A DNA stretch of 64,000 nt from an uncultured Oscillospiraceae bacterium (lineage in GTDB: Bacteria > Bacillota > Clostridia > Oscillospirales > Oscillospiraceae). This document shows, piece after piece, positions 6,850-26,233 of this stretch; the stretch's first letter is position 1; the number at the start of each line of letters is the position of its first letter. The notes beneath the pieces were generated by a model. The model saw only the letters and a program-made list of their open reading frames with translations, ran no database searches and had not been told where the DNA came from. A program made the translations under genes and the position numbers. The stretch covers positions 16,595 to 80,594 of the forward strand of contig CANRNF010000003.1 in the NCBI GenBank assembly GCA_947631865.1. The letters are read 5' to 3'.

Positions 6850-6975
6850 TAACTTGGAGAGATGTTTTGAAGAGAACGGTGTGTATGTGCGGCCGGTTCA
6901 TTGATCCTTTATGGCCCTAATGGAGCGCAGGTGGTATTCATTAGGACATAAGGCCCGCTGTGAGGAGGTATGTCT

Positions 6976-7707
6976 ATGCGGATCGCGGTCTGCGACGATG
7001 ACCTGCGGGAGATGGAACAATTTGAGGACGCCCTGCAGGGATGGGACCCGACCAGGAAAGCGGAGAAGTTTATGGACGGCGCTTCGCTGCTGGAGGCGGC
7101 CAAAGACGTACCCGGCTTCGATATCGTGTTTTTGGACATCTACATGCCAGGAGAAAACGGCGTTGACATCGCGAAGCGGCTGCGGGAGATATCGCCTGAG
7201 ACGGGTATCGCCTTCGTCACCACCAGCACGGAGCACGCGGTGGAGGCGTTTTCCCTGCACGCGCTGCATTATCTTGTCAAGCCGGTGACGACCAGGGGCG
7301 TGGTGGAGGCCTTCCGGCGGCTGACGGAGATCCGGAAAAGTCAGCGGGAGCGGATATCGTTCGCTGTCGGCACGAACCGGATCACGGTGTTTCTGGATCA
7401 AATCTGCCTGCTTGAAAACGACAACCATGTGGTGAACGTCTCCCTGTCCGACGGACGGCGGCTGAAGGTATGGATGAGCTTTGGCGAGCTGGAGCGAAAG
7501 CTGAGCGGGAGCTTTTTGCGTATCAACCGGGGGATCATCGTCAATATGGACTATATCGCCCAAATGGGGGCTGACACCTGTACCCTGCGGGACGGGAGCC
7601 GGCTGCCCATCGCCGTACGGCAGAGCGCTGCCATCCGCGCGGCCTATGACGACTATGTGTTCGACCAGCTCTCCCGGCGAAAGAGCTTTTCGGAGGTACA
7701 GCCATGA
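6976..7707 (+). CDS. LytTR-family (AgrA/ComE-like) response regulator
   Basis: The receiver domain shows CDDD, FLDIYMPGENG and LVKP. A C-terminal LytTR DNA-binding domain follows. ATG 6976 lies 7 nt after GAGGAGG; an alternative ATG is at 6970. Confidence 0.88.
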   Translation: MRIAVCDDDLREMEQFEDALQGWDPTRKAEKFMDGASLLEAAKDVPGFDIVFLDIYMPGENGVDIAKRLREISPETGIAFVTTSTEHAVEAFSLHALHYLVKPVTTRGVVEAFRRLTEIRKSQRERISFAVGTNRITVFLDQICLLENDNHVVNVSLSDGRRLKVWMSFGELERKLSGSFLRINRGIIVNMDYIAQMGADTCTLRDGSRLPIAVRQSAAIRAAYDDYVFDQLSRRKSFSEVQP

Positions 7708-9089
7708 GCGTGGGCGTGTATCTGCGTAACGCGGCAGGCTTCTTTCTCGAGATATTCCCCTGCGTGATGTTGGTCTTCCTGCCCTTTTCGGAGGAGTCGT
7801 TCCGCTTTCACAGAAAGCGCGTCCTTCTCGGGGAGGCGGCCGCGGTAACGGTGCTGTCGGCTCTGTTCCCGGCGGCGATGTACGCCGCGGCGCAGCGGGA
7901 CATGGCGGTGGCCGCCAATATCTTCATGGGCGCCGTCATATTGCTCACGCTCATCGCGCAGGGCTGGCTGATACGGGAGGCCCCGATCAAGAAGACCATG
8001 GCCGTGTTCGCGGTGGTATTTTACGGCGTGACACAGTACTGGCTGGTGAACATGCTGATCGGCGCCGTGTCCGGGCTGGTCCCGCTGTCTCAGGAACTGG
8101 AGAACTGGTCGGTATATTCCCCCTGCGGGCTGGCGATGTACGCGGTCACGACGGTGATCCTGCTGCCGCTGATGCTCCTTCTGGTGATCCAGCCGCTGAG
8201 CGAGTATCTCCAGGAGATAGAGACAAAAAAGATGCGCCAGGAGTTCTTTATCCTGGCGGCGACCACGGTGGTATTCCTTCTGCTGGTCATGGCGGCTGAC
8301 ATCAGCTACTATCGTGTGGGGTACCGGGCGTATCACCGGGAACTGCCCCAGCTTCTGGTGGCGCTGATGGACCAGCTGGCCATCTATTGGCTGATCTTCC
8401 GGGAGTCCGTGTGGCGCAAACGGGACAGCGACCACCAGCGGGCTCTGGAGATACAGCAGCTCCAATATGAAAAGATCGTCAGCGATATGGAGAACACCCG
8501 GCGGATGAGCCATGACCTGCGCCACCACTACAGCTCTCTGAACGAGATGCTTCAGGACGGCAGGCTGGATGAGATGAAGCGCTATCTCTCCCAGGTGCTG
8601 GACGACAACGCCAAGCGGATGAACGAGGTCTACTGTGAGGACATGGCGGTCAACGGGCTTTTGCAGTACTACGCGGGCGTCGCCCGGGCGGAGGGGATAC
8701 GCTGCGACATCCAGGCCCAGTGCGACAACGTGACCATCGCCCCCACGGATCTGACGGTGGTGTTCGGCAACGCCATGGAAAACGCCGTCAACGCCTGCCG
8801 GAAGTGCGGCCAGGACCGGTGGATCCTCGTGCGCGTCGGCACGGTGCAGGGTTCGCTGGCCATCGAGATATCCAACGCCTGCAGCGGCGTGTGCATCAGC
8901 CGCCGGGAGCAGACCGAGGATGGCTTCCTGCCCGCGGAGGCGTTTTTGAGTGAGCGGGCCAACGGCGGGTACGGCCTGCGCAGTATCGCCCAGACCGCCC
9001 AGAAATACGGCGGCAGCGCCAGGTTCCGGTATGACGCCGGGGAGGATACGTTCACATCCCGTATCCGGTTGAATATGCCCACGGAATGA
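7704..9089 (+). CDS. AgrC/ComD-like (HPK10-type) membrane sensor histidine kinase
   Basis: 461 aa with about 6 N-terminal TM segments. It has an H-box SHDLRHH, an N-box FGNAMENAVNA and a G-box GGYGLRSI. An ATGA overlap couples it to the regulator gene. Confidence 0.85.
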   Translation: MSVGVYLRNAAGFFLEIFPCVMLVFLPFSEESFRFHRKRVLLGEAAAVTVLSALFPAAMYAAAQRDMAVAANIFMGAVILLTLIAQGWLIREAPIKKTMAVFAVVFYGVTQYWLVNMLIGAVSGLVPLSQELENWSVYSPCGLAMYAVTTVILLPLMLLLVIQPLSEYLQEIETKKMRQEFFILAATTVVFLLLVMAADISYYRVGYRAYHRELPQLLVALMDQLAIYWLIFRESVWRKRDSDHQRALEIQQLQYEKIVSDMENTRRMSHDLRHHYSSLNEMLQDGRLDEMKRYLSQVLDDNAKRMNEVYCEDMAVNGLLQYYAGVARAEGIRCDIQAQCDNVTIAPTDLTVVFGNAMENAVNACRKCGQDRWILVRVGTVQGSLAIEISNACSGVCISRREQTEDGFLPAEAFLSERANGGYGLRSIAQTAQKYGGSARFRYDAGEDTFTSRIRLNMPTE

Positions 9090-9115
9090 GCGCTAAAAAA
9101 TTTTTTCGCAGGTGT

Positions 9116-9152
9116 CGGCCCTTTCGCCGCGCTGGATCGTATAAAGAGACAG
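9116..9152 (+). promoter_or_regulatory. Conserved bipartite promoter-like element P1 (CGGCCCTTT-N13-CGTATAAAGAGACAG)
   Basis: One of five copies with an invariant 13-nt spacer and an upstream A/T tract. It lies 68 nt upstream of the A1 start. Confidence 0.55.
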
Positions 9153-9205
9153 CACGGCAGTTCGGAGCCGTAAAATAAACACCAATTTTTAAGGAGGAAA
9201 AAACC

Positions 9206-9388
9206 ATGTCCGAAGAGAAGAAGAACGAAGTCCAGGAGCAGAACGAGCTGAACGAGAACGATCTGGACGGCGTGTCCGGCGGCGCCTTTGCCGAGGTAAA
9301 CCCGCTGAGCATGGGCCGTAATGTCCTCAGGACCACTGAAGACGGAAGGGCTGACGGCCCCATGACCAGCCGCTCCAACATTCGGTGA
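9206..9388 (+). CDS. A1: GG-leader peptide, Cys-free 34-aa core; candidate signalling peptide
   Basis: MSEEKKNEVQEQNELNENDLDGVSGG|AFAEV... SD AAGGAGG lies upstream. The gene sits directly downstream of the kinase. Confidence 0.7.
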   Translation: MSEEKKNEVQEQNELNENDLDGVSGGAFAEVNPLSMGRNVLRTTEDGRADGPMTSRSNIR

Positions 9389-9422: not shown

Positions 9423-9629
9423 ATGATGAACGTAAACACCATGGACACCCGGCTCAGGGCGCTTTTTGACCGCCAGAGGAAGGTCAGCGATCCGCGCATG
9501 GCGCGGCTCATCGGGGAGACAGAGACCCGGTGGGGCGCGCCCATCGCGGACGACGACCTGGGATCGGTGGCGGCGGCGGGCGACCCGGACGCAGGCCAGA
9601 GAAAAACACCCTGGGATGAGCGCAGATGA
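9423..9629 (+). CDS. Hypothetical 68-aa protein translationally coupled to the sigma factor gene
   Basis: SD GGGAGGA lies upstream. Its stop overlaps the sigma start (ATGA). No family was recognised. Confidence 0.5.
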   Translation: MMNVNTMDTRLRALFDRQRKVSDPRMARLIGETETRWGAPIADDDLGSVAAAGDPDAGQRKTPWDERR

Positions 9630-10099
9630 TGGACGGGGAAGAGCTGTACCTGCGGTACAGGGATAAGGTCCTGGCCTATATCCGCGCCAGGGTGGAAAAC
9701 GAACAGGACGCGGAGGACCTTTGCTCCACCGTCTTTATGAAGGCGTGGGCAAACCTGCCGGATTATGACGGGCAGAGGTCCTCTGTCTCCACATGGCTTT
9801 TTTCCATCGCCCACAACGCGATCATCGACTTTTACCGCGGCCGGCGGCCGGCGGCCGAATTGGACGAGACGGTGCCGGCCCCGGAGCGGGACCCGGAACT
9901 GGAGGCCCTGGCGGAGGCGCTGGAGGCCCTGCCGGAGCGGGAGCGGGACGTGATCGTGCTGTACTACTACCACGGACTGACCCTGAAGGAGATCGCGGTC
10001 CACATGCGCCTTGCCTACAGCACGGTGAAGCTCTGCCACAGCCGGACGCTGGAGGCGCTCAGACAGATGATGGGCGGAACAGAGGCCCTGAAGATATGA
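9626..10099 (+). CDS. Sigma-70 family, ECF-like RNA polymerase sigma factor
   Basis: 157 aa containing only region 2 (DAEDLCSTVFMKAW, STWLFSIAHNAIIDFYR) and region 4 (LPERERDVIVLYYYHGLTLKEIA). Confidence 0.85.
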   Translation: MMDGEELYLRYRDKVLAYIRARVENEQDAEDLCSTVFMKAWANLPDYDGQRSSVSTWLFSIAHNAIIDFYRGRRPAAELDETVPAPERDPELEALAEALEALPERERDVIVLYYYHGLTLKEIAVHMRLAYSTVKLCHSRTLEALRQMMGGTEALKI

Positions 10100-10132: not shown

Positions 10133-10429
10133 ATGGAGCAGAAAGTGATCGAGGAATTCCTGGAAAAGGCGAAGCAGGCAAAGAGCCCGGAGGAGATCAA
10201 GGCCGCCGCGAGGGCGTGCGGTCTGGAGCTGACGGCGGAGAAGCTCACGAAGCTGGACGGCGCGCTTTGTGGAGCGAAGGGCGAGCTGTCCGACGAGGAC
10301 CTGGACGGCGTCGCCGGCGGGAAGCAGAACCTGGAGTATGGCACCCCTGAGTTTTGGCACTATGTAGACGAACAGATCCAAAAATACGGACCGAGTGTCG
10401 TCCCCGCTTTGATGGCGACCTATATGTAA
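10133..10429 (+). CDS. N1: Nif11-like-leader GG precursor, Cys-free core
   Basis: MEQKVIEEFLEKAKQAKSPEEIKAAARACGLELTAEKL...ELSDEDLDGVAGG|KQNLEYG... matches the Nif11 leader architecture. Confidence 0.8.
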   Translation: MEQKVIEEFLEKAKQAKSPEEIKAAARACGLELTAEKLTKLDGALCGAKGELSDEDLDGVAGGKQNLEYGTPEFWHYVDEQIQKYGPSVVPALMATYM

Positions 10430-10482
10430 TAAACGCAGAAGACGCTAGCGGGGGACATACATAGTAAAGGGGAGGCACTATC

Positions 10483-10716
10483 GTGGACGACAACGAGAAC
10501 AAAAAGAGCGGTGAAGAGCTGGCCGACGAGGCCCTGGACAAGGTGGCCGGCGGCGGGTTAATGCGTAAGCCATGCTGCTTTATATGCGGTCGGGACGACA
10601 TTCCCCTGGGAGAGGGTTCCTACCGTGCGGCGGATTATGGAAGATCCATTTCCTATATCTGCGAGGCTTGCTTAAAATCCAACTACGGCCCGGAATGGAC
10701 ATGGCGCAAACTTTGA
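10483..10716 (+). CDS. A2: short-GG-leader precursor, zinc-ribbon-like core (class i)
   Basis: GTG start after AAAGGGGAGG. Leader (M)DDNENKKSGEELADEALDKVAGG; core has CFIC...YICEAC. Confidence 0.8.
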   Translation: MDDNENKKSGEELADEALDKVAGGGLMRKPCCFICGRDDIPLGEGSYRAADYGRSISYICEACLKSNYGPEWTWRKL

Positions 10717-10749
10717 TGGCCGGGTGACCCGGCAGAGAGGAGAATTATC

Positions 10750-11055
10750 ATGGAGCAGAAGAAGATCGAGGAATTCGTGGAAAAAGCGAAGCAGGCCAAG
10801 AGCCCGGAGGAAGTGGAGGCCGCAGCGAAGGCGTGCGGGGTGGAGCTGACGGCGGAGAAGCTCGCGAAGCTGGAGAAATCCCTCCGCGGAAAGAAGGGCG
10901 AGCTGTCCGACGAGGAGCTGGCCGGCGTTTCCGGCGGGGCGGTGGATCCGAGCACGACCGATTGGCTCGCTGAGCAGCTCGTTGAGCAGTTCAAAGAGCA
11001 GATCAAAGACCTCGACCCGGAATTCTTGGAATTGCTGAAGCTGGCTTTGTCCTGA
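10750..11055 (+). CDS. N2: Nif11-like-leader GG precursor, Cys-free amphipathic core
   Basis: Its leader is nearly identical to N1. ...ELSDEELAGVSGG|AVDPSTTDWLAEQLVEQFKEQI... Confidence 0.8.
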   Translation: MEQKKIEEFVEKAKQAKSPEEVEAAAKACGVELTAEKLAKLEKSLRGKKGELSDEELAGVSGGAVDPSTTDWLAEQLVEQFKEQIKDLDPEFLELLKLALS

Positions 11056-11078
11056 AAGACGGGAACAGGAGAAACGAC

Positions 11079-11345
11079 ATGGACAACAGCGAGAACAAAA
11101 AGAGCTACGAGGAACTGGCCGACGAGGCATTGGACAAGGTGGCCGGCGGTGGCTGGGAATGGCTATGGGGAGACTCATCGCCCAGAGTGACCCCATGCGG
11201 CATTTGCCGCGGAACTGAGGAGCAAGCTATATTATATACGATCGATTTCGGCAACGGCGGCAGCTCCGGGATGTACTTGTGTTCCAAGTGCCTCGCGGAC
11301 GAAAGGAAAAAATATAAAGTGACCGAAGGCTGGGGCGGGAAATGA
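11079..11345 (+). CDS. A3: short-GG-leader precursor, zinc-ribbon-like core (class i)
   Basis: Leader MDNSENKKSYEELADEALDKVAGG; core has PCGIC...YLCSKC. Confidence 0.82.
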   Translation: MDNSENKKSYEELADEALDKVAGGGWEWLWGDSSPRVTPCGICRGTEEQAILYTIDFGNGGSSGMYLCSKCLADERKKYKVTEGWGGK

Positions 11346-11399
11346 CGTGCGCGGAATTGTCCGAAGGCTGCCATTGCTGACGAAAGGAAAGGAAGAGCT

Positions 11400-11618
11400 A
11401 TGAATCAAGACGAAAATAAAAAAAGCGTTGAAGAACTGGCGGACGAGGCCTTGGACGCGATAACGGGCGGGAAGAGGGATGAATACGTACGCCCCACGGT
11501 CACCTGTCCCAAGTGCCATCAGCAAAAAGAGAGGCTGGTGACATGCCGTGACCCGAAGGATCCGACAAAGCGTGAGTCCATGTGCCCCGACTGTGCCCGC
11601 GATCTCGGGTATGTGTGA
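11400..11618 (+). CDS. A4: short-GG-leader precursor, zinc-ribbon-like core (class i)
   Basis: Leader MNQDENKKSVEELADEALDAITGG; core has CPKC...MCPDC. Confidence 0.8.
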   Translation: MNQDENKKSVEELADEALDAITGGKRDEYVRPTVTCPKCHQQKERLVTCRDPKDPTKRESMCPDCARDLGYV

Positions 11619-11650
11619 TGACCGTCCCGGACGGAGAAAGGAGAGACATC

Positions 11651-11863
11651 ATGGAAAACAGCGAGAACAAAAAGACCCCGGAAGAGCTGGCCGACGAGGC
11701 GTTGGACAAGGTGGCCGGGGGGGAGTACGGTGGGGATTTTGTTGTACTCAACTGCAGATCCTGCCGCCACCATAACAATGACTGTCCCTACGGAACTCCG
11801 CTGGGTGCCGTGTTAGAATTGAAACCATCGTATTGGACACTGTGCCCAAGCAAGGAGGCTTGA
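11651..11863 (+). CDS. A5: short-GG-leader precursor, class ii Cys core
   Basis: Leader MENSENKKTPEELADEALDKVAGG; core has NCRSC...DCPY...LCP. The internal ATG is preferred over the track start 11582 because of the SD and the leader alignment. Confidence 0.78.
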   Translation: MENSENKKTPEELADEALDKVAGGEYGGDFVVLNCRSCRHHNNDCPYGTPLGAVLELKPSYWTLCPSKEA

Positions 11864-11866
11864 CCG

Positions 11867-12112
11867 ATGAACGACAGCGAGAACAAAAAGAGCGGTGAGG
11901 CCTTGGCCGACGAGGCGCTGGAAAATGTGTCCGGGGGGAGCGACGATGTTTTTTTTACAATTATAAGTTTTAGGAACAATTTTAAAAGCAGAAACAATTG
12001 CACGTCCTGCAACAGCTATTACAGGAGCAACTGTCTGCTAAAGCTTACTGTTGAAGGACTCTACGATAAGTTTAGCGGGGACAATAACGCGATGTGCCCT
12101 TACAAGACGTAA
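11867..12112 (+). CDS. A6: short-GG-leader precursor, class ii Cys core
   Basis: Leader MNDSENKKSGEALADEALENVSGG; core has NNCTSC...NC...AMCPYKT. The core DNA is locally AT-rich. Confidence 0.78.
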   Translation: MNDSENKKSGEALADEALENVSGGSDDVFFTIISFRNNFKSRNNCTSCNSYYRSNCLLKLTVEGLYDKFSGDNNAMCPYKT

Positions 12113-12138
12113 GACAGGGCCGAAAGGAGAAAACGGAC

Positions 12139-12378
12139 ATGAGCGACAGCGAGAACAAAAAGACCCCGGAGGCCCTGGCCGACGAGGCGCTGGACGCGGT
12201 GGCCGGCGGGAGCAGCAGATTTGACGCGCTCCTTAAGGGGGGAGCCTGCGCGGACTGCCCACGGATCGACGAGAGCGTTCATATGTATGATGTGATATTC
12301 GACGGCAGCAGCATGTCCATCTATCTCTGTCCCGATTGCGTTGCCAAACGCCGCCAAAGAGGACAAGTGGTTCGGTAA
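12139..12378 (+). CDS. A7: short-GG-leader precursor, zinc-ribbon-like core (class i)
   Basis: Leader MSDSENKKTPEALADEALDAVAGG; core has CADC...YLCPDC. The start at ATG 12139 is chosen by SD and leader alignment. Confidence 0.8.
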   Translation: MSDSENKKTPEALADEALDAVAGGSSRFDALLKGGACADCPRIDESVHMYDVIFDGSSMSIYLCPDCVAKRRQRGQVVR

Positions 12379-12406
12379 GCGCGCAGACAGCGGAAAGGAG
12401 AGCGAC

Positions 12407-12682
12407 ATGAACGATAGCGAGAATAAAAAGACCCCGGAGGAGCTGGCCGACGAGGCGCTGGAGAAGGTGTCCGGAGGCGGGCTCTCCTGGGGCGGCCTTG
12501 TACTACCGGACCCGCTGGAGGACATTTTCGCTGAGAAGTGCCATAAGTGCGGGAAAAAGCCCGGTCGGCAGTATACCCTGTACTATCCGACGCCGTTCGG
12601 CCCCAGGATCGAGACCTGCTGCGACGACTGCGCCGAACTGTTCAGACAAACGTATGGAGGCGAAGCGATCCCCGTCGACTGA
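12407..12682 (+). CDS. A8: short-GG-leader precursor, zinc-ribbon-like core (class i)
   Basis: Leader MNDSENKKTPEELADEALEKVSGG; core has CHKC...CCDDC. Confidence 0.8.
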   Translation: MNDSENKKTPEELADEALEKVSGGGLSWGGLVLPDPLEDIFAEKCHKCGKKPGRQYTLYYPTPFGPRIETCCDDCAELFRQTYGGEAIPVD

Positions 12683-12709
12683 CGGCAGACAGCGGAAAGG
12701 AGAACGACT

Positions 12710-12961
12710 ATGAATGATAACGAGAACAACAAGAGCATGGAGGCTCTGCCCGACGAGGCCCTGGACAAGGTGACCGGCGGTGATGGATTGACATATCTGC
12801 CTTTCAAGATCCCATGCCACAGGTGCCCCAGATGTGACGAGACCGTGATGTATTATACGATCAAAGACGAAAGCGGTGGGTACGGGATGAACCTGTGTCC
12901 CGACTGCGTCGCGGAACTCAGGAAAGATCATACGGTGTACGAAGGCTTTCATCTATTCTGA
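12710..12961 (+). CDS. A9: short-GG-leader precursor, zinc-ribbon-like core (class i)
   Basis: Leader MNDNENNKSMEALPDEALDKVTGG; core has CHRCPRC...NLCPDC. Confidence 0.82.
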   Translation: MNDNENNKSMEALPDEALDKVTGGDGLTYLPFKIPCHRCPRCDETVMYYTIKDESGGYGMNLCPDCVAELRKDHTVYEGFHLF

Positions 12962-12981
12962 CGCCGGGAAAGAGGACGACA

Positions 12982-13172
12982 GTGAATAACGAACGCAAAC
13001 GTGTACCCCCCGAAGCGCTGGACGACGATGCCATGGACAGGGTCGCCGGGGGAGGATCACTCTCAGACGGACAGGGGTTCTACCACTGTAAAAACTGCGG
13101 TGCGCAGTTCACAAAAACCAGATCGTGTATGGCCGCCGTCTCAGCTGCCCCAGCTGCGGGGCATGGCTGTGA
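12982..13172 (+). pseudogene. A10: frameshifted GG-leader precursor (class i); single-A deficit in A5 run at 13113-13117
   Basis: GTG start, (V)NNERKRVPPEALDDDAMDRVAGG...FYHCKNCGAQFTK. With one more A the frame reads NQIVYGRRLSCPSCGAWL-stop at 13172, parallel to A11. As written the frame runs on into A11. Confidence 0.65.
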
Positions 13173-13202
13173 TATAAATGATTATATAAGGGGAGAACGA
13201 AC

Positions 13203-13391
13203 ATGGATAACAACGAGGACAAAAAGAGCGGTGAAGAGCTGGTGGACGAGGCGCTGGACAGGGTCGCCGGCGGGAGAATATACCAAGACAGACACGGGAT
13301 CCTCTACTGCGATAGCTGCGGTGCGTCTTTCCTGGCAGAACACCTCCAGACTATGCGCCGTCTCCACTGCCCCTACTGCGGGGCGGAATAA
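13203..13391 (+). CDS. A11: short-GG-leader precursor, zinc-ribbon-like core (class i)
   Basis: Leader MDNNEDKKSGEELVDEALDRVAGG; core has YCDSC...HCPYC. Confidence 0.8.
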   Translation: MDNNEDKKSGEELVDEALDRVAGGRIYQDRHGILYCDSCGASFLAEHLQTMRRLHCPYCGAE

Positions 13392-13424
13392 CATTCACAA
13401 ACTGCTGTGGTAAGGAGATATGAC

Positions 13425-14201
13425 ATGAAGCGGAGCGCGGGATACTTTATGGCGCTGGCCCTGACGGCGGCGCTCATCCTGGGCGCGGCCACGCCGGCGC
13501 TGGCGGCGGAGAATTTTTCCGACGAGATGAAATTCGACGACGGGGCCGATATCAGCCCCGCTGACGGCGCGGACAGCGTGGAGCGGGCGGGGGACCACGA
13601 GGACAGCCCCTACTTCCGCCACCCGGATTTTTATAACATGACCTCCACCGACAGTCTGACCATCCTGACGAACTTCAAGACCATACAGCAGTCCAGCGAG
13701 TGGAGCTGCGGCGTGGCCTGCGTGCTGATGACGCTGGAGTGGTACGGCCTGCGGGGGGACTACGACGAGGAGAGCCTGGCTCAGCTGCGGCCCCAGGGGA
13801 TGGAGCCCGTGGCTACCACCATGAGCCAGATGGTGGGCCTTTTTGATTCAGTAGGCGGCTTTGATTGCTACTCCGCCATCGACGCGGGGGAGGACGCGGC
13901 GGATATCTTCACTTTTGATTACATCCAGGAGACCCTGGCGAACGGCGACCCCATCATCATCGGCTGGAACGACTGGGGCGCCCACTGGCAGATCATCATC
14001 GGCTACGACGACATGGGCACCGAGGTGACCCAGGACGACGTGATCATCGTGGCCGACCCCTATGACACCACCGACCATGACCAGGACGGCTACGGCATCT
14101 ATCCCGCCGAGCGGTTCCTGTATAACTTTACATTCTACGATTACTTTGACGAGGGCGAGCTGAACGACATGTGCTTCCTCGTCGCCAGACCCGCGGCCTG
14201 A
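13425..14201 (+). CDS. Secreted papain-fold, C39-like cysteine peptidase
   Basis: Signal peptide MKRSAGYFMALALTAALILGAATPALA. The order Q..SSEWSCGVACVLM ... GAHWQIIIGYDD ... ADPYD matches the Gln/Cys/His/Asp layout of C39-type peptidases. SD AAGGAG lies 7 nt upstream of ATG 13425. Confidence 0.6.
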   Translation: MKRSAGYFMALALTAALILGAATPALAAENFSDEMKFDDGADISPADGADSVERAGDHEDSPYFRHPDFYNMTSTDSLTILTNFKTIQQSSEWSCGVACVLMTLEWYGLRGDYDEESLAQLRPQGMEPVATTMSQMVGLFDSVGGFDCYSAIDAGEDAADIFTFDYIQETLANGDPIIIGWNDWGAHWQIIIGYDDMGTEVTQDDVIIVADPYDTTDHDQDGYGIYPAERFLYNFTFYDYFDEGELNDMCFLVARPAA

Positions 14202-14258
14202 CGGGGAGAGCAAGATACATATAGGGACCGCCTCGGTCCCCACAGGAGAGGAGACCGG

Positions 14259-17222
14259 ATGATGAAAAGGAACATTTCCAAGGTACTGAGCGCGCTGCTG
14301 CTGGCGGCGCTGCTTGTCAGCGTATGTCCCTTGGCGGGACTGGCGGCGGAGCCCGCGCCCGCGGCTACGGCAGAGCCGGAGGCCACGGCGGGACCCGAGG
14401 CCACGGATGAGCCTGAGGAGACAGCGGAACCTGAGGCCACGGACGGACCCGAAGCTACGGATGAGCCGGAGGCCACGGATGAGCCCGAGGAGACGGCAGA
14501 ACCGGAGGTCACGGACGAACCCGAATCCACGGATGGACCCGAAGCTACAGATGAGCCCGAGGCCACGGATGAGCCCGAGGTCACAGACGAACCTGAAGCC
14601 ACGGATGAGCCGGAACCCGCCGCGGCCGGTGATCCCGCGGTGCGGATCACGGCGGGCGGCGAGAGCCGGGAGTATGCCTCCATCGACGAGGCGTGGGCGG
14701 CGGCCGTCCAGGCCGGAACGGCCACGGTGACCCTTCTGGCGGATGTGACGGCCCAGGATGTACTTACCGTCCCGGCGGGCGCCTCCATCACCCTTGCCGG
14801 CGGGGAAAACACGCTGACGACGGCCTGTATCCGTGTGGACGGCGGCGCGCTGACGGTGGCCAGCGGCACGGTCCAGGATGCGGGCGACGGCTCCACCGAC
14901 AAAATGGGCGCGATCAATATCCAGGCCGGCCGCCTCACGGTGAACGGCGGCACGATGCGCGGGCTCAATGCCGGCGTCTATTGCTATGGCGGTGAGACGA
15001 CCGTCAACGGCGGCGTGATCTGCGGTGAAAACGGCGGTCTCGCCGTCACGGACGCGGACAGCCTCACGGTGAACGGCGGCGACATCTCCGGCGGTTTCGC
15101 CGGCATCGCCACTACGGGCGATAACAGACCTACTATCAACGGCGGCAGCATCAGCGGCAAGGGCGGGAGCGGCGTGAGCATGGGCTTCGGGGTCATTGCC
15201 TATAGCGGCTTGGTGCTCACCGGCGGCGAGATCAGCGGCGGCGACGCCGGCGTCCTGAGCATGGGCGATACGACGGTCACGGGCGGCAGCGTCACCGGTA
15301 CGGATGGCTTCGGCCTGCTGATAGGGGAGGAGGGCTCGGCGTCTCTGTCCGGCGGCACATACGCCGGCGTGAGCGGCGCCGTGAGCTGCGGCGGCTCCGT
15401 GCTGGGCGAGGACTTCCAGTCGGACCTGACGGTGAATGACCTGCTGGCCGATGGGTACGGCTGGTACGGCGCGGACGGCGCGCGTCTGACCCCGGCGGCG
15501 GACGAGAAGGCCCTGGAAGGGCCTGTGACGGTGCGCCCCCTGCCCGTGACGCCGGTGCTGAAGGTGGCGGGGGAGAACGTGCTTTTGTCCTCCGACCCCA
15601 CGGATATCGATCATGAATATGACGCGCCTCTTACGGACGGGGCGCTGATCGAGGGCGGCGCGGGCCGCATCGTGGTCCCGGCGGAATATGTGGTACAGTT
15701 CCCCGGCGAGGGCGTGGAGGCCACCGAACGCTACAGGTACGACAACCGCTATGAGCCGGACACGCTCATCTACCACCGGTACACCTTTGAGATCACCGAC
15801 CCCACGCTGACGGAGGTCACCGTGACTGTGTCCCCCAACCCAGACCCGCCCATGTGGACGAAGGTCATCTCCCATACATACGCCGATTTCTCCTGGAGCG
15901 TGACCGACTGCGCCAACAATAGGCACACCTACAACCACGCCGACGACGAGAGCACGATCTACGCGGCGGAGGACGCGGGCGGCGTGACCCTGAACCTGAG
16001 CAAGACGGAGGGCGCGGAGCCCCTGATGAAGATAGGCACAGCGACAGACATCGGCGGCGGCAAGTATACCCTTTACAGCGAGAACGGCGTGATCGAGTTC
16101 ACGCTGGCGCCCGGCAGCATCCGGGTCAACGTCACCGGCGAGACGGAGGGGCTTATCCGGGCCTCCGAATACGTGATGGACAGATACGGCGAGAACTACT
16201 TCCGGGTATATGTCAAGCCGGGCTACACCGTGGTCCCTGCGGATGAGAATACCCAGGTGACCGCGGGCTATACCAGCGAGAACGACGACGGATCGGATCG
16301 CCTCCACTACCATGTGAACGCGGACGCGGCGGCGGAAAAGGGCCTTGACAGCGTCACGGTGCGCCTTGAGAAGATCACCTCTGCCACCCTCTCTGTCAAT
16401 GAGCCGGACGTTCTGCTGGCGGCGGACCCCAACGGCAGCGGCAAAAGCCCCATCCTCACCGACGGGGACGTCATCCCGCCGGAGGGCGGGTGGCTGCTCA
16501 CCAGGTCGGACTGGTGGTTCAGCGGCGACAACGACGAGTATGCCTATGATTGGCGGGACGCGGCCTACGGTGAGCCCGGCAGCGAGATATACGATTGGAC
16601 CTATATCTATCCCCTGAAAAACGGCGTGGTGAACGTCACGATGGAATCGGTCGACGAACCGGCCCATTGGGCGGAAGTGACCGTTGATAACCCCGGCCTC
16701 AGGGACCTTTACATGCACGCTTATACCGGCGGTCAGGGAGCGCAGTTCAATTCCGATACGTATCATGCGTCGATGATCGTGTCGTACTATTTGTATATCG
16801 AAAACACAGATGGCTCGCTCCGTAAAGCCGCCGATATCACCGATATGGTTGGTATCCAGAGTGTAGAGGAACACTCCGACTATCTCATGCTGTACGTGGA
16901 CCCGGCGGCGGAGAAGATATCCTTCACCGTGAAGGCTCCCGCGGGCACTATCACACCCATACCGGGACCCACGGCGACGGCTGCCCCGACCGCGACGGCA
17001 GCACCCACGGCGACGGTTGCGCCCACGGCGACGGCAGCGCCCACGGCGACGGCAGCACCCACCACGGCGCCCGCCGCCACGGCGGCGCCCACCACGGCCC
17101 CCGGGGCAACCAGCCCCGCGACGGGAGATGAGACGGCATTTATCCCCTGGCTGCTGGCGCTTCTCGGCTGCGGCGCCGCCCTCGCGGTGGTGACGGCCTG
17201 CCGGCGGCGGGAGAGAAGATAA
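14259..17222 (+). CDS. Cell-wall-anchored surface protein with acidic EPEATD repeats, parallel beta-helix-like Gly-rich repeats and a sortase-type sorting signal
   Basis: 987 aa with a signal peptide. It has periodic NGG-x-I-x-GG repeats. The C-terminus is SPATG + hydrophobic segment + RRRERR, as in (S/P)PxTG sorting signals. Confidence 0.7.
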   Translation: MMKRNISKVLSALLLAALLVSVCPLAGLAAEPAPAATAEPEATAGPEATDEPEETAEPEATDGPEATDEPEATDEPEETAEPEVTDEPESTDGPEATDEPEATDEPEVTDEPEATDEPEPAAAGDPAVRITAGGESREYASIDEAWAAAVQAGTATVTLLADVTAQDVLTVPAGASITLAGGENTLTTACIRVDGGALTVASGTVQDAGDGSTDKMGAINIQAGRLTVNGGTMRGLNAGVYCYGGETTVNGGVICGENGGLAVTDADSLTVNGGDISGGFAGIATTGDNRPTINGGSISGKGGSGVSMGFGVIAYSGLVLTGGEISGGDAGVLSMGDTTVTGGSVTGTDGFGLLIGEEGSASLSGGTYAGVSGAVSCGGSVLGEDFQSDLTVNDLLADGYGWYGADGARLTPAADEKALEGPVTVRPLPVTPVLKVAGENVLLSSDPTDIDHEYDAPLTDGALIEGGAGRIVVPAEYVVQFPGEGVEATERYRYDNRYEPDTLIYHRYTFEITDPTLTEVTVTVSPNPDPPMWTKVISHTYADFSWSVTDCANNRHTYNHADDESTIYAAEDAGGVTLNLSKTEGAEPLMKIGTATDIGGGKYTLYSENGVIEFTLAPGSIRVNVTGETEGLIRASEYVMDRYGENYFRVYVKPGYTVVPADENTQVTAGYTSENDDGSDRLHYHVNADAAAEKGLDSVTVRLEKITSATLSVNEPDVLLAADPNGSGKSPILTDGDVIPPEGGWLLTRSDWWFSGDNDEYAYDWRDAAYGEPGSEIYDWTYIYPLKNGVVNVTMESVDEPAHWAEVTVDNPGLRDLYMHAYTGGQGAQFNSDTYHASMIVSYYLYIENTDGSLRKAADITDMVGIQSVEEHSDYLMLYVDPAAEKISFTVKAPAGTITPIPGPTATAAPTATAAPTATVAPTATAAPTATAAPTTAPAATAAPTTAPGATSPATGDETAFIPWLLALLGCGAALAVVTACRRRERR
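14349..14618 (+). repeat. In-frame 18-nt tandem repeats encoding (E/G)PE(A/E/V/S)T(D/A) x ~15
   Basis: Direct reading of repeated gagcc[c/g]gaggccacggat units. Confidence 0.85.
16968..17100 (+). repeat. In-frame 18-nt tandem repeats encoding PTATAA linker
   Basis: cccacggcgacggc[a/t]gc[a/g/c] units repeated about 5 times, followed by PTTAP variants. Confidence 0.8.
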
Positions 17223-17248
17223 ACAGATGGTTGAAAAGGAGAAAAGAC

Positions 17249-17413
17249 ATGAACGATAAAGAGAACAAAAAGACCCCGGAGGAACTGACCGACGAGGCGG
17301 TGGACACCGTCGCGGGCGGCGCGCTCGGCCTCGTCACCCCGCAGACACTGACCCAGGAGGAGATCGACGCCCTGCTGGCGGGGCAGAAAGAGGACAGCCA
17401 GAAGAAGCGGTAA
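17249..17413 (+). CDS. A12: short-GG-leader precursor, Cys-free 30-aa core
   Basis: MNDKENKKTPEELTDEAVDTVAGG|ALGLVTPQTLTQEEIDALLAGQKEDSQKKR. It lies immediately upstream of the giant Sel1 gene. Confidence 0.72.
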   Translation: MNDKENKKTPEELTDEAVDTVAGGALGLVTPQTLTQEEIDALLAGQKEDSQKKR

Positions 17414-17462
17414 ACACATATCCCGCCCCATGCCGGGCGGACAGCGAAAGGGAGGTACATTT

Positions 17463-20400
17463 ATGAGCATCAAAAAGACGTTGGCGCTGCTTTTGGCGGC
17501 GGTCATGCTGCTGGCAGTGTGCGCGGGCTGCGGAAAGACGCCCGAGCAGATGGTGGACGAGGCGGCGAAGGCCCTGGCAGAGGGCGACGGCGAGAAGGCC
17601 GTGAAGCTGCTGACAAAGGCCGGGGACAAGGACTACGCTCCCGCCGACGCGGTGCTGGGCGGCCTGTATGTTACCGGCGAGGGCGTGGAACAGGACTACG
17701 CCAAGGCCATGGAGCTGTACCAGTCGGCCGCGGACGGCGGCGATGCCGCGGGTCTGACCGGCATGGGCGATCTGTACGCCAATGGCATGGGCGTGGAAGT
17801 GGACAAGGCGAAGGCCTTCGAACTGTACTCCCAAGCGGCGGAGCAGGGCGACATAGCCGGCCAGACGGCCGTGGGCCGGTTCTATGACTACGGCTACGAC
17901 GTGGTGGATGTGGATTATACCGAGGCGGCCCGGCTGTACGAGCTGAGCGCGGAGGCGGGCGACCCCATGGCCGCGCTGTCGCTGGCCTGGCTTTATGACC
18001 AGGGCCAGGGCATGGAAGAGGACCACGACAAGGCCGGGGAGTACTTTGCCCAGGCCCTGGCGGGCGTCACGGAGAGCGGCGGCCCGTACGAGGGCGAGCC
18101 CTATATCCTGGGCCAGCTCTACTTCGGCGGCTACAGCGTGGAGCAGGACTACGACAAGGCGCTTGAATACTTTACCACCGCGATGGAGCAGGGCTCCTTC
18201 GAGGCGGAGCGGATGCTGGCTATGATGTACGTGTACGGCTACGGCGTGGACGTGGACATGGATAAGGCCGTCGAGCTTCTCACCGACGCCGCGTCCCACG
18301 GGGTGTATGATACCGCTTACGTGCTGGGCATGAACTGCCTGGGCCTGGTGAACGAGACCGGCGAGGGGTTTGAGCCTGACTACGCCGAGGCGGTCAAGTG
18401 GCTGGAAATGGACGCGGCGCTGGACCATCCGGCGGCGGAAACCTGGCTGGGCGACATGTATATGTACGCCAACGGCGTGGAGATGGACAAGGCAAAGGCC
18501 CTGGAGTACTACACCCAGGCGGCGGAACAAGATGACGCCTATGGCCAGTACATGATGGGCAACATCTATGACGCCGGCTACGGCGTGGTGGACGTGGACG
18601 AGGCCACGGCCGTGGAGTGGTATGAAAAGGCCGCGGCGCAGAATGAGGCGGAGGCCATGTATCAACTGGCCGCTCATTACGAGGAAGGCCTGGGCGTGGA
18701 GAAGGACGAGGCCAAGGCCCAGGAGCTCTTTGACAGCCTTGCCGCCCAGCTCACCGCGAAAGACGAGAGCGAGCTGTACTCCGCCGAAAAGCGGGTCCTG
18801 GGCTATCTGTACGGGGAGGGCCAGGGCGTAGAGGAGGACGACGTCCGTGCCGCGGAGCTTATGACCGCCGCGGCGGAGAAGGGCGAGGCGCGGGCCATGT
18901 ACGACCTGGGCTGGCTGTATGAAGAAGGCGAGGGCGTGGAACAGGACTACGCCAAGGCCATGGAATGGTACGGCAAGGCGGCGGAGCACGGCGTGCGCAA
19001 GGCGATGTACTCTCTGGGCCTGATGTACCTCTACGGCGAAGGCGTGGAGGTGGACTACGATCAGGCGATGCAGTGGTTTGAAAAGTCAGCGGAGCAGGAG
19101 GACTCCTACGCGCTGTACGCCGTGGGCTGGATGTACGGTCAGGGCTACGGTGTGGAGAAGGACCCGGACAAGACCGTGGAGTACTATACCCAGGCGGCGG
19201 AGCTGGATAACCCCCAGGCGCTGGTGGCTTTGGGCCGCATGTACTACTCCGGCGATGATGTCGAACAGGACTATGACAAGGCCAGGGCGCTCTTTGAGCA
19301 GGGCGTAGAGCTGGACGATCCCTACAGCGAGGTGTATCTGGCCGATATGTACATGTACGGCGAAGGCGTGGAGGAGGATTATACCCAGGCGCGAGAGCTG
19401 TACGAGCAAATCCTGACCCATGAGGACGCCGATGACGACCTTATAGGCTACGCGGCGGAGAACGACGGCTGGTTCTATGAGTACGGCATGGGCGTGGAGA
19501 TGGATAAGGCCAAGGCCTTTGAACTTTACACCCAGTCCGCGGAGCTGGGCTATGTGGACGGCCAGACCTCTCTGGGCCGGTTCTACGACTATGGCTACGG
19601 CGTGGTGGACAGAGACTATGCCCAGGCCGCGGAGTGGTACCAGAAGGCCGCGGACCAGGGCGACGCCGAGGCGATGCTGTATCTGGCCTGGCTCTATGAG
19701 CAGGGCGATGGCGTTGAGCAGGACGAGGCCAAGGCCGAGGAACTCTATACCCAGGCCTTCGAGGCTGCCTCGGAGGACGAGGACTACAGCTACAACCAGC
19801 TGGTGCTGGGCTACCTTTATCTGGACGGCACCGGTGTGGAGCAGGACTATGCCAAGGCCCTGGAATACCTCACCGCGGCGGCGGAGGACGATATCTTCGA
19901 GGCCGGGAGTGAGCTGGGCATGATGTACCTCAATGGTCTCGGCACGGAAAAGGACGAGGCCAAGGGCCTGGAGCTGCTGGAAGACGCGGCGGCTCACGGC
20001 GTGCCTGTGGCATACAACTACCTGGGCCACGCCTATGCGGACGGCACCGGCGTGGAGCTTGACTATGAAAAGGCCCGGGAGCTCCTGGAACAGGGCGAGG
20101 CCCTGGGGGACCCCTACGTGTGCTACTATCTGGCCGACATGTACATGTACGGTCTGGGCGGAGATGAGGACTATGCCAAGGCGCGGGAGTACTATGAGCA
20201 GGTCCTGGCACTCCCCGAGCAGGACGACGACGATCTGGGCTACGCCGCGGAGAGCGACGGCTGGTTCTACGAGTACGGCATGGGCGTGGAGATGGATAAG
20301 GCAAAGGCCTTTGAGCTTTACACCCAGTCCGCGGAGCTGGGCTATGTGGACGGCCAGACCTCTCTGGGCCGGTTCTACGACTACGGCTACGGCGTAGTGG

Positions 20401-22781: not shown

Positions 22782-22800
22782 CACTTATTTCCGGGGCCGC

Positions 22801-22837
22801 CGGCCCTTTGGGCTTTCTGAAACGTATAAAGAGACAG
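22801..22837 (+). promoter_or_regulatory. Conserved bipartite promoter-like element P2
   Basis: CGGCCCTTT-N13-CGTATAAAGAGACAG, 37 nt upstream of the A13 ATG. Confidence 0.55.
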
Positions 22838-22859
22838 AAGACCGGAAAGGAGAACCGCT

Positions 22860-23120
22860 ATGAATAGCAGCAAAAACGAAAAGAATTTTGAAGAGCTGTC
22901 CGACGAAGCCCTTGACAAGGTGGCCGGAGGCTGGGACGAGGACGAGGTATTGGAGGCTGGGCCATGGGTAGCGAAGGCTCCCCTGACCGATGATGAAAGA
23001 TACGGCGATCACGAGTGCGGCAACTGCCACAGAAGGCATATCAACGCCTCGAACGGCATGTTGAGAGACGACAACGTATGGTTTTGCAACGGCTGCTGGT
23101 ACACGATCAGCGGTTGGTAA
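22860..23120 (+). CDS. A13: short-GG-leader precursor, zinc-ribbon-like core (class i)
   Basis: Leader MNSSKNEKNFEELSDEALDKVAGG; core has ECGNC...FCNGC. Confidence 0.8.
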   Translation: MNSSKNEKNFEELSDEALDKVAGGWDEDEVLEAGPWVAKAPLTDDERYGDHECGNCHRRHINASNGMLRDDNVWFCNGCWYTISGW

Positions 23121-23138
23121 AGATGAAGGGAGGCAGAG

Positions 23139-23405
23139 ATGATAGACAACAAGGACAAAAGGGAGCTGTCCGACGAGGCCATGGATGAGGTGGTGGGCGG
23201 TTCGATCCGACTCCCCACTTCTGTGACGGCCGCTTATTTGAGCGATCCGTCTCAACCGCATACCGTGTGCGACAGATGCCACGGTACATTTGCCGCGGGC
23301 GTGGTCACAGAGCACGCGGTGAGCTCCGGCTATCTTTGGCTCTGCCCGGCTTGCGTCCAGGCTTACAAGGACGCCGGTCTGTACTTTCACAAAGCCGATA
23401 TATAA
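23139..23405 (+). CDS. A14: short-GG-leader precursor, zinc-ribbon-like core (class i)
   Basis: Leader MIDNKDKRELSDEAMDEVVGG; core has VCDRC...LCPAC. Confidence 0.78.
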   Translation: MIDNKDKRELSDEAMDEVVGGSIRLPTSVTAAYLSDPSQPHTVCDRCHGTFAAGVVTEHAVSSGYLWLCPACVQAYKDAGLYFHKADI

Positions 23406-23433
23406 GAAGGAGCAGCGGTAAAAGGAGAAGGCT

Positions 23434-23700
23434 ATGAACGACAACGAGAACAGGAAGAGCATGGAAGAGCTGGCCGACGAGGCGCTGGACGCCGTGTCCG
23501 GGGGAGCGGTATCAAAAGAGACTCTAGATGAGGAGAAATGGTATTGCTTTTTTCAGGGATTTCAGTCGCTGAATAATTGCTGCAATTGTCAGTCAGACTG
23601 GGATTTCACCTGTCAGCTCTTCGATATGGATCCAGAGGCGAGATACAATATGTTCGGCGGGAACCAGTTCGCGAAGTGCCCGTATTTCAGGAGCATGTAA
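23434..23700 (+). CDS. A15: short-GG-leader precursor, class ii Cys core
   Basis: Leader MNDNENRKSMEELADEALDAVSGG; core has NNCCNC...TC...AKCPYFRSM. Confidence 0.8.
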   Translation: MNDNENRKSMEELADEALDAVSGGAVSKETLDEEKWYCFFQGFQSLNNCCNCQSDWDFTCQLFDMDPEARYNMFGGNQFAKCPYFRSM

Positions 23701-25120: not shown

Positions 25121-25363
25121 ATGAACAACAACGAAAACAGAAAGGCTCCCCAGGAGCTGACAGACGAGATGCTGGACGCGGTGGCCGGAGGCGGGCGCCA
25201 GGCCGATAGCTCTGACGCGTATTTTTGGCAGCAGTTTCGGAACAACAACGACTGCCTGCATTGCAAGAACAGCTGCCCGTATATTTTCATGTCGCCCGAG
25301 GAGAGGAGCATTACCTTTGGCAGAGACCCCAACGCGAAGTGCCAGTATTACAAGAGCATGTGA
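25121..25363 (+). CDS. A16: short-GG-leader precursor, class ii Cys core
   Basis: Leader MNNNENRKAPQELTDEMLDAVAGG; core has NDCLHC..SCPY...AKCQYYKSM. Confidence 0.8.
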   Translation: MNNNENRKAPQELTDEMLDAVAGGGRQADSSDAYFWQQFRNNNDCLHCKNSCPYIFMSPEERSITFGRDPNAKCQYYKSM

Positions 25364-25383
25364 GACCGAAGGGAGAGCAAACT

Positions 25384-25629
25384 ATGGAAAACAGCGAGAA
25401 CAAAAAAGCTCCGGAAGAGCTGACGGACGAGATGCTGGACAAGATCGTCGGCGGAGCCGATACACCAGATAAGGATGCCATTCTGGCGTGGGCCATGCAG
25501 TTTGGTATGAACAACTGCTTGCGATGCAAGGGCATGACGACCAGCCAGTGCAGTTACTATCATGGGCCGGTGGACGTCTACCTGATGGGGTTGAAGGCCT
25601 CCGACACCTGCCCCGGATTCATATCCTGA
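25384..25629 (+). CDS. A17: short-GG-leader precursor, class ii Cys core
   Basis: Leader MENSENKKAPEELTDEMLDKIVGG; core has NNCLRC...QC...DTCPGFIS. The internal ATG 25384 is chosen by leader alignment. Confidence 0.78.
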   Translation: MENSENKKAPEELTDEMLDKIVGGADTPDKDAILAWAMQFGMNNCLRCKGMTTSQCSYYHGPVDVYLMGLKASDTCPGFIS

Positions 25630-25645
25630 TGAAGGAGGCGCCGTC

Positions 25646-25915
25646 ATGAGCGACAACGAGAACAGGAAGAACAGCGAAGAACTGGCGGACGAGGCGCTGG
25701 ACAATGTCGCGGGAGGCATCACGCCCGAGCAATGGGAGCAGGCGCGGCAGCAGGCGCTTGCGCAGTATAAGGATCCATGCATCGTGTGCAAGACGACGGA
25801 AGGCGTGAAGTACTACGCCTACAGGAACAAGGTGGGATGCTACGGCGCTCAGTATTTCTGCCCGGCCTGCCGTGATCTGAAGATCCAGCAGGGATATGAG
25901 GTGTGGGAATACTGA
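25646..25915 (+). CDS. A18: short-GG-leader precursor, zinc-ribbon-like core (class i)
   Basis: Leader MSDNENRKNSEELADEALDNVAGG; core has PCIVC...FCPAC. Confidence 0.8.
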   Translation: MSDNENRKNSEELADEALDNVAGGITPEQWEQARQQALAQYKDPCIVCKTTEGVKYYAYRNKVGCYGAQYFCPACRDLKIQQGYEVWEY

Positions 25916-25936
25916 CGGCCGTGCCCGCCAAAGAAA

Positions 25937-25993: not shown

Positions 25994-26233
25994 ATGAACG
26001 AGGAACTGATCGGGAAGCTGAAGGAGGCCAAGTCCGTGGAGGACGTGGTCGCCGTTGCCAAGCAGTACGGCAAGAAGTTGACCCTGGAGCAGGCCAAGGT
26101 CCTTCTGGACCGGGTGAAGGCCGCTGTGACCGGCGAGTTGTCCGACGAGGACCTGGCCGCCGTCGCCGGCGGCGCCGTCGACCCGAAGAAGTTCGGGGAG
26201 GCCATGGGCGCTGACAAGCATTGGCTGGGCTGA
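25994..26233 (+). CDS. N3: Nif11-like-leader GG precursor, 19-aa Cys-free core
   Basis: MNEELIGKLKEAKSVEDVVAVAKQYGKKLTLEQAKVLL...ELSDEDLAAVAGG|AVDPKKFGEAMGADKHWLG. Confidence 0.75.
   Translation: MNEELIGKLKEAKSVEDVVAVAKQYGKKLTLEQAKVLLDRVKAAVTGELSDEDLAAVAGGAVDPKKFGEAMGADKHWLG

Follow-up and report, generated by a model that had tools for sequence, protein, structure and literature searches.

Long Nif11-like and short double-glycine leaders as probable versions of one export tag in a peptide island of an uncultured Oscillospiraceae bacterium

Why would a single peptide island equip its products with two kinds of leader of very different length, and do the genes that carry them act together? 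The question is raised by a 64-kb stretch of DNA from an uncultured Oscillospiraceae bacterium (GenBank assembly GCA_947631865.1, contig CANRNF010000003.1, positions 16,595 to 80,594), hereafter the window. It has 61.8% G+C and contains 23 genes for peptides with a double-glycine (GG) leader, all on the forward strand. Three of these, N1, N2 and N3, have long, Nif11-like leaders; the other 20 have short ones, and short leaders form a 92-nucleotide (nt) repeat family with nine copies. At the start of the first array the genes are ordered N1-A2-N2-A3, with gaps of 23-53 nt, and A4-A10 follow. A first-pass annotation had read this order as an alternation of two unrelated leader types, suggestive of paired products. 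Our analysis points to another answer: the N genes are probably precursors of the N11P family that are exported and cleaved by a C39 transporter and released unmodified, with no obligate partner. We see in the locus an ordinary variant of a peptide-export system that is already known, and no new system of pairs.

N1, N2 and N3 are present where the first-pass annotation had placed them, with leaders of about 60 amino acids (aa; 63, 63 and 60) and Cys-free cores of 35, 38 and 19 aa (Table 1). All three are also called as genes in other assemblies of the same species, and an identical N1 gene is called on 10 further contigs; the closest genomes are uncultured Oscillospiraceae metagenome-assembled genomes from rabbit gut ("Lapin"). 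Each leader ends in GG and carries the double-glycine leader motif GELSDE(D/E)L(D/A)(G/A)V(A/S)GG, with hydrophobic residues at -4, -7 and -12 and acidic residues between them. The DNA of N1 and N2 is 84% identical over 190 nt of leader, with the similarity running up to the GG codons and no further. The two genes are paralogues and do not count as independent data points.

Family membership was scored with TIGR03798 (curated cut-off 32.3 bits) and with Pfam PF07862 (Nif11; gathering threshold 23.8 bits). N1 (35.1 bits) and N2 (33.4 bits) pass TIGR03798, aligned to model positions 17-68 of 68, but N3 remains below it (26.1 bits, E 7.6e-6), and all three fail PF07862 (16.8, 15.0 and 22.0 bits). 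The leaders had been called Nif11-like on the understanding that they reach the threshold of a Nif11 model; on TIGR03798, N3 alone falls short. Relatives straddle the family boundary (26-43 bits), and the closest leader relatives of N3 score 30.3, 33.4 and 38.6 bits (relatives of the same leader type: about 30-39). N3 may be described as a sub-threshold homologue, assigned to the Nif11-like leaders via relatives that pass, and by sequence all three appear to be borderline members of the known N11P family. The TIGR03798 alignment begins at model position 16-17, indicating that the N leaders are without the N-terminal part of canonical N11P leaders. A sequence search of the PDB with N2 gave no significant match ("Nif11 domain-containing protein" 9zn4 appeared at E 0.58).

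How do the long leaders relate to the short ones? A hidden Markov model (HMM) was built from 18 short leaders, with 300 shuffles of each long leader as control. Positions 12-24 of this model align to the last 13 residues of every long leader, scoring 14.7, 8.0 and 9.1 bits for N1, N2 and N3 against shuffle maxima of 4.4, 6.2 and 5.5 bits. Read directly, L-12, L-7, V-4, G-2 and G-1 are common to long and short leaders. With this segment shared, and every long leader scoring above all of its shuffles, the two leader types can no longer be called unrelated. A hydrophobic pattern at -4/-7/-12 before GG is what C39 transporters recognize (PMC10885120), C39 cleavage needs no more of the leader than its last 13 residues (Bobeica 2019, PMC6363468), and Nif11-type, nitrile-hydratase-type and short leaders are all cut by a single C39 domain (PMC6363468). 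The resemblance to short class II leaders was already shown by logo comparison (Haft 2010, PMC2887384). Long and short leaders are thus probably interchangeable versions of one export tag.

The sole GG exporter in the window lies at 39528-44399. In this three-gene cassette (TIGR03796, TIGR03797 and TIGR03794), the C39-peptidase transporter and its partner both pass the cut-offs of their models, which were built by Haft et al. for the NHLP/Nif11 export cassette (PMC2887384), and the HlyD component is far below its own. The catalytic residues of the C39 domain are intact (Cys of ECGAAS, His of HFVVLDG). The two leader types had been thought to converge on a GG exporter within one operon; the transporters are in fact located 29 kb from N1. 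In the related locus L016, a 93%-identical exporter orthologue lies 2.4 kb upstream of the array that holds the N2 orthologue, and about 4.6 kb upstream of the N2 gene itself.

Is a given type of leader reserved for a given type of core? In the relatives this does not appear to be the case. A core 76% identical to A3 (E 4e-40) is found in L023 behind an N3-type leader with a 23-residue internal deletion. The KSVIITN core stands behind short leaders in L016 and L024, and behind N leaders in L025, P0022 and P0030, while L025 and L026 contain chimeric leaders. In L024, the N2 slot is occupied by a short-leader gene with a Cys-free, acidic 70-aa core, whose similarity to the N2 core is weak and not significant pairwise. 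The leader DNA, with the 190-nt N1/N2 identity and the 92-nt short-leader repeats, is a ready substrate for recombination. Precursors with two successive GG motifs, or with a short motif added to a long leader, were also seen (L016 14740-14970; L025 6231-6479 and 2778-3038); they look like footprints of leader-repeat recombination, or substrates for a second cut by the secreted C39-like peptidase.

The cores themselves had been described as amphipathic and helical-looking. For N1 and N2 this is moderately so, the maximum hydrophobic moment of their cores being reached by 1-5% of shuffles, but not for N3, where 66-78% of shuffles reach it. An AlphaFold2 model of N2 from a 17-sequence alignment has a mean predicted local distance difference test score (pLDDT) of 52.8, a low confidence at which the secondary structure alone is usable; it places three helices in the leader, another over the segment next to GG, and two in the core (67-84 and 90-100). 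The N1-type core (DWxYVxEQIxKYGPxxVxxL...) occurs in about 15 homologue clusters and the N2-type core in about five; L016 and L022 contain N2 orthologues that are about 90% identical. Intermediates (P0005, P0006) connect the two types, with D, W, Q and P conserved in the alignment; the similarity between the N1 and N2 cores is visible in the multiple alignment, not significant pairwise, and suggestive only. The N3-type leader precedes varied 15-35-aa cores elsewhere. For N2 and for the N1 leader against their orthologues, the ratio of nonsynonymous to synonymous substitution rates was 0.4-0.9, which leaves selection undecided because each comparison holds too few differences (about 10-30, and 7-8 for the N2 core).

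The coexistence of the two leader types had been considered unusual. When metagenome contigs were scanned with a Nif11-type leader profile, 79 loci were obtained (L030-L108), many of them from human gut. After dereplication, 27 groups offered 5 kb of sequence or more together with a Nif11-type gene; in 14 of them a GG gene with a short leader lies on the same strand no more than 3 kb away (a count based on regular expressions, with eight loci inspected by eye). Mixed arrays are thus common, and NHLP and N11P precursors had already been reported clustering together (Haft 2010, PMC2887384). In L044, the one metagenome locus scanned for protein families, one short-leader gene and six genes with Nif11 leaders accompany the TIGR03796/03797 pair, an extracytoplasmic function (ECF) sigma factor and a radical SAM/SPASM enzyme. 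The metagenome loci (e.g. L044 4273-8876, L051 2970-8455) hold arrays of 3-8 Nif11-leader genes flanked by short-leader CxxC...CxxC peptides, and their long-leader cores have 65-80 aa and mostly 7-11 Cys, often ending ...C.YC.YEKGLWLCNN.

Do the N and A genes then encode two-component products, either a two-peptide bacteriocin or an extracellular chaperone or antidote for the neighbouring Cys-rich A core? Such pairing would fit the short gaps within N1-A2-N2-A3, the nearness of the A2, N1/N2 and A3 families in L024, L016 and L023, the co-occurrence of N1-type and A3-type genes in all four genomes that have either, and the charge complementarity of N2 (net -6) and the mildly basic A2 (+2). A comparison of the core-family orders argues against it. 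The order is N1-A2-N2-A3-A4-A5-A6... in the window, A2-N1-K-(acidic core)-A3-A4-...-A5-A6 in L024, A2 (truncated)-N2-K-K-A4... in L016, and A3'-N1 in L023. N1 and A2 are thus inverted in L024; N2 is followed by A3 in the window but by KSVII-type peptides in L016 and L022; and A2 is truncated in L016 and undetected in L022, with N2 intact in both. Since A3-A4-A5-A6 is equally collinear, the adjacency is explained by descent. Conservation of the N/A adjacency in related loci had been expected, and the order is indeed partly kept, but apparently as whole-array collinearity, with N next to A no more often maintained than any other adjacency.

The alternation as such carries no statistical weight. 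By hand calculation, two N genes placed at random among eleven are non-adjacent in 82% of cases; that they fall precisely on positions 1 and 3 has a probability of 1/55, a post hoc figure. Duplication of a two-gene unit (N1-A2 giving N2-A3) was considered and rejected, as the A2 and A3 cores show hardly any similarity (E 0.07) and the closest paralogues of A3 are A9 and A7. In class IIb bacteriocins, adjacent GG-leader genes encode cationic peptides with GxxxG-type helix-helix motifs, an immunity gene follows, and the two peptides act in synergy when present in roughly equimolar amounts. Here the adjacency is present, but the N1 and N2 cores are anionic (net -2 and -6), N2 has no Gly and N1 no GxxxG, and the gaps are so short that there is no room for an immunity open reading frame (ORF). 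With leader types exchangeable, A2 and A3 not close paralogues, and the neighbours of N2 changing from locus to locus, the reading of the alternation as paired products has to be given up, and two-component products are in our judgement very unlikely. It is likewise quite improbable that the conserved, anionic helix-turn-helix cores of the N1/N2 family form a new class of exported partner peptides, acting with the zinc-ribbon-like A peptides (e.g. N1 with A3) as co-factor, extracellular chaperone or neutralising antidote and retaining the full Nif11 leader because these cargoes need it.

If the N peptides act without a partner, are they modified before export? The N precursors could be true substrates of the kind seen in peptides made by the ribosome and then post-translationally modified (RiPPs), the Nif11 part recruiting an unrecognised tailoring enzyme encoded in the island or elsewhere in the genome. 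The strong conservation of the full N leader would suit this, as would the human-gut relative that has the same leader class beside a radical SAM/SPASM maturase, the dedicated "nif11-class peptide radical SAM maturase" models in NCBIfam, and the several large island proteins without family match. Yet no ORF of the window matches the LanM, LanB/C, YcaO, ATP-grasp or radical SAM families, the motif CxxxCxxC is absent from the window ORFs apart from two antisense ORFs, and no tailoring family is listed in the Pfam gene tables of L016 and L010. A RiPP would combine a modifiable core, rich in Cys, Ser, Thr or Gly, with a tailoring enzyme; the N cores are Cys-free, contain few Ser/Thr clusters, and have no such enzyme in the 64 kb. 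Hidden modification is therefore unlikely, and the N cores are most likely released unmodified, since no tailoring enzyme was found in the window.

One enzyme-like protein without family assignment, 432 aa long (45305-46603, beside D1-D3), was considered as a peptide-modifying enzyme and rejected, as its homologues occur with GH3, MatE-HATPase or STAS genes, or alone, without GG peptides. It has no Pfam match and a predicted condensation/BAHD acyltransferase fold (pLDDT 89.8; Foldseek E down to 2e-16), in which H110 is invariant and D114/G115 are near-invariant. The protein belongs to a separate conserved module (window 32852-39488 and 45305-47255; L029 5885-11479) made up of a MatE-HATPase_c_2 fusion, a GH3-family adenylating enzyme, SpoIIE-HATPase_c_2, STAS-APH, the 432-aa protein and NUDIX. 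In a distant genome, STAS, GH3, the acyltransferase-like protein and MatE-HATPase stand side by side without GG peptides. The set of MATE, GH3 and BAHD recalls the plant salicylate route EDS5/PBS3/EPS1.

The genes directly upstream of N1 raise a further possibility. A response regulator, a kinase and a sigma factor are found there (the kinase/LytTR pair about 1 kb upstream), and the N cores might be pheromones sensed by this LytTR/GHKL system, which together with the ECF sigma factor would switch on the island in the manner of ComC/BlpC. N1-type and N3-type cores are short, conserved across species and aromatic-containing, and were counted as amphipathic in this argument; CSP and BlpC pheromones are likewise short, amphipathic, aromatic-containing and conserved. 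The N cores are also not cationic and come without an immunity gene. This role is improbable all the same: the gene adjacent to the kinase encodes a different GG peptide (9206-9388), which is the more obvious candidate, no two-component system lies within 6-10 kb of the N orthologues in L016, L022 and L023, and three different N cores for one kinase would be unparsimonious.

We thus favour unpaired export of unmodified N peptides through the common tag. In long and short leaders alike, the shared 13-residue amphipathic segment would be bound by the C39 domain of the transporter pair of NHLP/Nif11 type (40012-44399), which would cleave after GG during export, and the N-terminal three-helix Nif11 part would correspond to the stretch on which tailoring enzymes rely in modified relatives. 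The mature products would be a 19-aa peptide from N3 and, from N1 and N2, helix-turn-helix peptides of 35 and 38 aa that are acidic and moderately amphipathic. The gene order N1-A2-N2-A3 would have arisen by duplication and recombination at conserved leader DNA, together with inherited synteny, rather than from functional N and A pairs. The window seems to derive from mixed arrays like those of other gut Clostridia, with the maturase missing; most cargoes would have shifted to short leaders, and a few conserved Cys-free cargoes would have kept the long one. We infer that the N peptides are cleaved, exported and left unmodified and that they act outside the cell, in a bacteriocin-like way or as signals; a partnership with A peptides is possible as well.

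Several observations weigh against this explanation. Within the window, Cys-free cores go with 3/3 long and 2/20 short leaders (Fisher p ~0.006, a hand calculation in which N1 and N2 are not independent). This link between long leader and Cys-free core is local to the window, because the long-leader cores of the metagenome arrays mostly carry 7-11 Cys. The N leaders are better conserved than the N cores, and full-length N1/N2-type leaders occur in about 22 protein clusters, suggesting that the Nif11 part may still act beyond the 13-residue motif. Apart from A3 and its L023 counterpart, the cases of reassortment are short or weak similarities. The A2, N and A3 core families stay close in three or four related genomes, as pairing would likewise predict. 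The exporter is far from array 1, at the distance given above, and tailoring enzymes could lie beyond the 64-kb window or among its unannotated proteins (987 aa at 14259, 709 aa at 47306). Finally, acidic cores such as those of the N peptides are untypical for class II bacteriocins, as is the lack of any immunity-like gene in the island.

How does the locus compare with known systems? With the N11P systems (PMC2887384; prochlorosin ProcA; LahA1-9/LahT of Lachnospiraceae C6A11, PMC6363468) it shares the three-helix Nif11-type leader, GG and L-12/L-7/V-4, paralogous arrays with conserved leader and divergent cores, and the TIGR03796 and TIGR03797 pair. The N leaders of the window differ in scoring at the family threshold and lacking the first ~16 model positions, and their cores are Cys-free, acidic and fairly conserved, whereas those of N11P systems are rich in Cys, Ser and Thr and hypervariable. 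The window also has no nearby LanM, cyclodehydratase or radical SAM enzyme, its HlyD is a 158-aa stub, and its short-leader genes far outnumber the N genes. The human-gut Clostridia arrays (L030-L108; NCBIfam maturase models, e.g. TIGR04103) have the same layout, with exporter pair, ECF sigma factor and mixed one-strand array, and leaders 47-61% identical to N2. In those arrays long leaders with Cys-rich cores dominate, and in L044 the radical SAM/SPASM gene lies inside the array; in the window short leaders dominate, there is no maturase, and the long leaders have Cys-free cores.

Class II loci of lactic acid bacteria (blp, pln, com) combine GG leaders, a C39 ABC transporter and many tandem genes for unmodified peptides. 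The window resembles them in having a LytTR regulator, a GHKL kinase and a GG-leader peptide adjoining the array, and differs in its anionic N cores without GxxxG, the lack of interleaved immunity genes, N leaders of 60+ aa instead of 15-30, and the presence of an ECF sigma factor, large secreted Sel1-repeat proteins and a secreted C39-like peptidase. PCAT1/CtA of Clostridium thermocellum (PMC6363468, PMC10885120) likewise consists of a clostridial C39 ABC transporter with GG-leader cargo; there, a single transporter has one adjacent cargo, whereas here a two-transporter NHLP-type cassette faces 23 candidate cargoes with two leader lengths.

With the same cargo families of one lineage behind full, internally deleted, chimeric and short leaders, all ending in the 13-residue C39 signal and with no maturase close by, the locus and its relatives offer a natural comparison for the role of the long Nif11 leader; a related human-gut array has kept that leader alongside a radical SAM maturase. 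They support the view of RiPP leaders as modular, the N-terminal part for tailoring enzymes and the C-terminal part for the exporter, and suggest deletion as a way in which long RiPP leaders can become short class II-type ones. They also carry a warning for genome mining: the leader class predicts neither the core class nor a partnership of adjacent genes.

Table 1. Features of the peptide island and its surroundings (window coordinates; scores in bits).
Feature	Position	Strand	Description
LytTR response regulator	6970-7707	+	Pfam
GHKL histidine kinase	7704-9089	+	Pfam
GG-leader peptide, 60 aa	9206-9388	+	26-aa leader, 34-aa Cys-free core; directly after histidine kinase; single gene of the island
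68-aa ORF	9423-9629	+	No family match; ends 4 nt into ECF sigma factor gene
ECF-type sigma-70 factor	9626..10099	+	Pfam Sigma70_r2/r4; 33 nt upstream of N1
Array 1	10133-13391	+	N1, A2, N2, A3-A10, plus decayed copy near 13000
N1 precursor gene	10133..10429	+	98 aa; intact ORF with ribosome-binding site; TIGR03798 match
N1 leader	10133-10321	+	63 aa, ending ...GELSDEDLDGVAGG
N1 core	10322-10426	+	35 aa, Cys-free, net -2
A2	10483..10716	+	GTG start; 24-aa leader, 53-aa core with 5 Cys; between N1 and N2
N2 precursor gene	10750..11055	+	101 aa; intact ORF; TIGR03798 match
N2 leader	10750-10938	+	63 aa
N2 core	10939-11052	+	38 aa, Cys-free, net -6, predicted helix-turn-helix
A3	11079..11345	+	Short-leader GG precursor, 64-aa CxxC...CxxC core; after N2
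A4-A10	11400..13391	+	Seven short-leader GG precursors, same direction, gaps 3-54 nt
Secreted C39-like protein	13407..14201	+	Pfam Peptidase_C39_2; N-terminal signal-like segment; directly after array 1; position kept in L016
987-aa protein	14259		No family match; weak beta-helix hint
GG-leader peptide, 54 aa	17249	+	After the 987-aa protein; single gene of the island
Sel1-repeat protein, 1783 aa			After the 54-aa GG peptide
B1-B3	22860-23700	+	Short-leader GG peptides
C1-C3 plus N3	25121-26233	+	GG-leader peptides
N3 precursor gene	25994..26233	+	79 aa; intact ORF; last gene of array C1-C3-N3
N3 leader	25994-26173	+	60 aa, second Nif11-like subtype
N3 core	26174-26230	+	19 aa, Cys-free, net 0
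HlyD-like stub	39528-40004	+	158 aa; TIGR03794 42.9 (cut-off 156.2)
C39-peptidase ABC transporter	40012-42186	+	TIGR03796 951.3 (cut-off 853.3)
Partner ABC transporter	42201-44399	+	TIGR03797 731.0 (cut-off 709.4)
D1-D3	44478-45242	+	GG-leader peptides

The region from 6970 to 9388 is a candidate quorum-sensing module upstream of array 1, with the 9206-9388 peptide as candidate pheromone and the 68-aa protein as candidate partner of the sigma factor. A sigma factor heads the array in the human-gut locus L044 too. The array is followed by a conserved block (window 13407-22781; L016 11671-14466) of a C39-like peptidase, a GG peptide and very large secreted proteins, which suggests extracellular processing or binding of peptides. 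The 54-aa GG peptide of this block has a Cys-free core of the form ...TPQTLT.EE...LLAGQ.E..QKKR, and the 1783-aa secreted protein contains 34 Sel1 repeats.

The short-leader cores have 38-67 aa, and in nearly all of them at least four Cys form a CxxC...CxxC pattern that resembles zinc ribbons or mini-proteins with two disulfides. They sort into a few paralogue groups (A3/A7/A9/C3, A6/B3/C1 and D1/D2). No terminator-like site was found on the forward strand between the A4-A10 genes, the sole forward-strand match in this span (13305) lying inside the A10 coding sequence. Between A9 and A10, at about 12990-13180, a decayed peptide gene still shows the remains of a leader (...EALDDDAMDRVAGG) and the beginning of a core like that of A10; it has no ATG and continues into A10 in a different frame. 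On the opposite strand, an ORF of 225 aa without family match (22785-23462) runs antisense to B1-B3 and is most likely spurious, as expected at 62% G+C.

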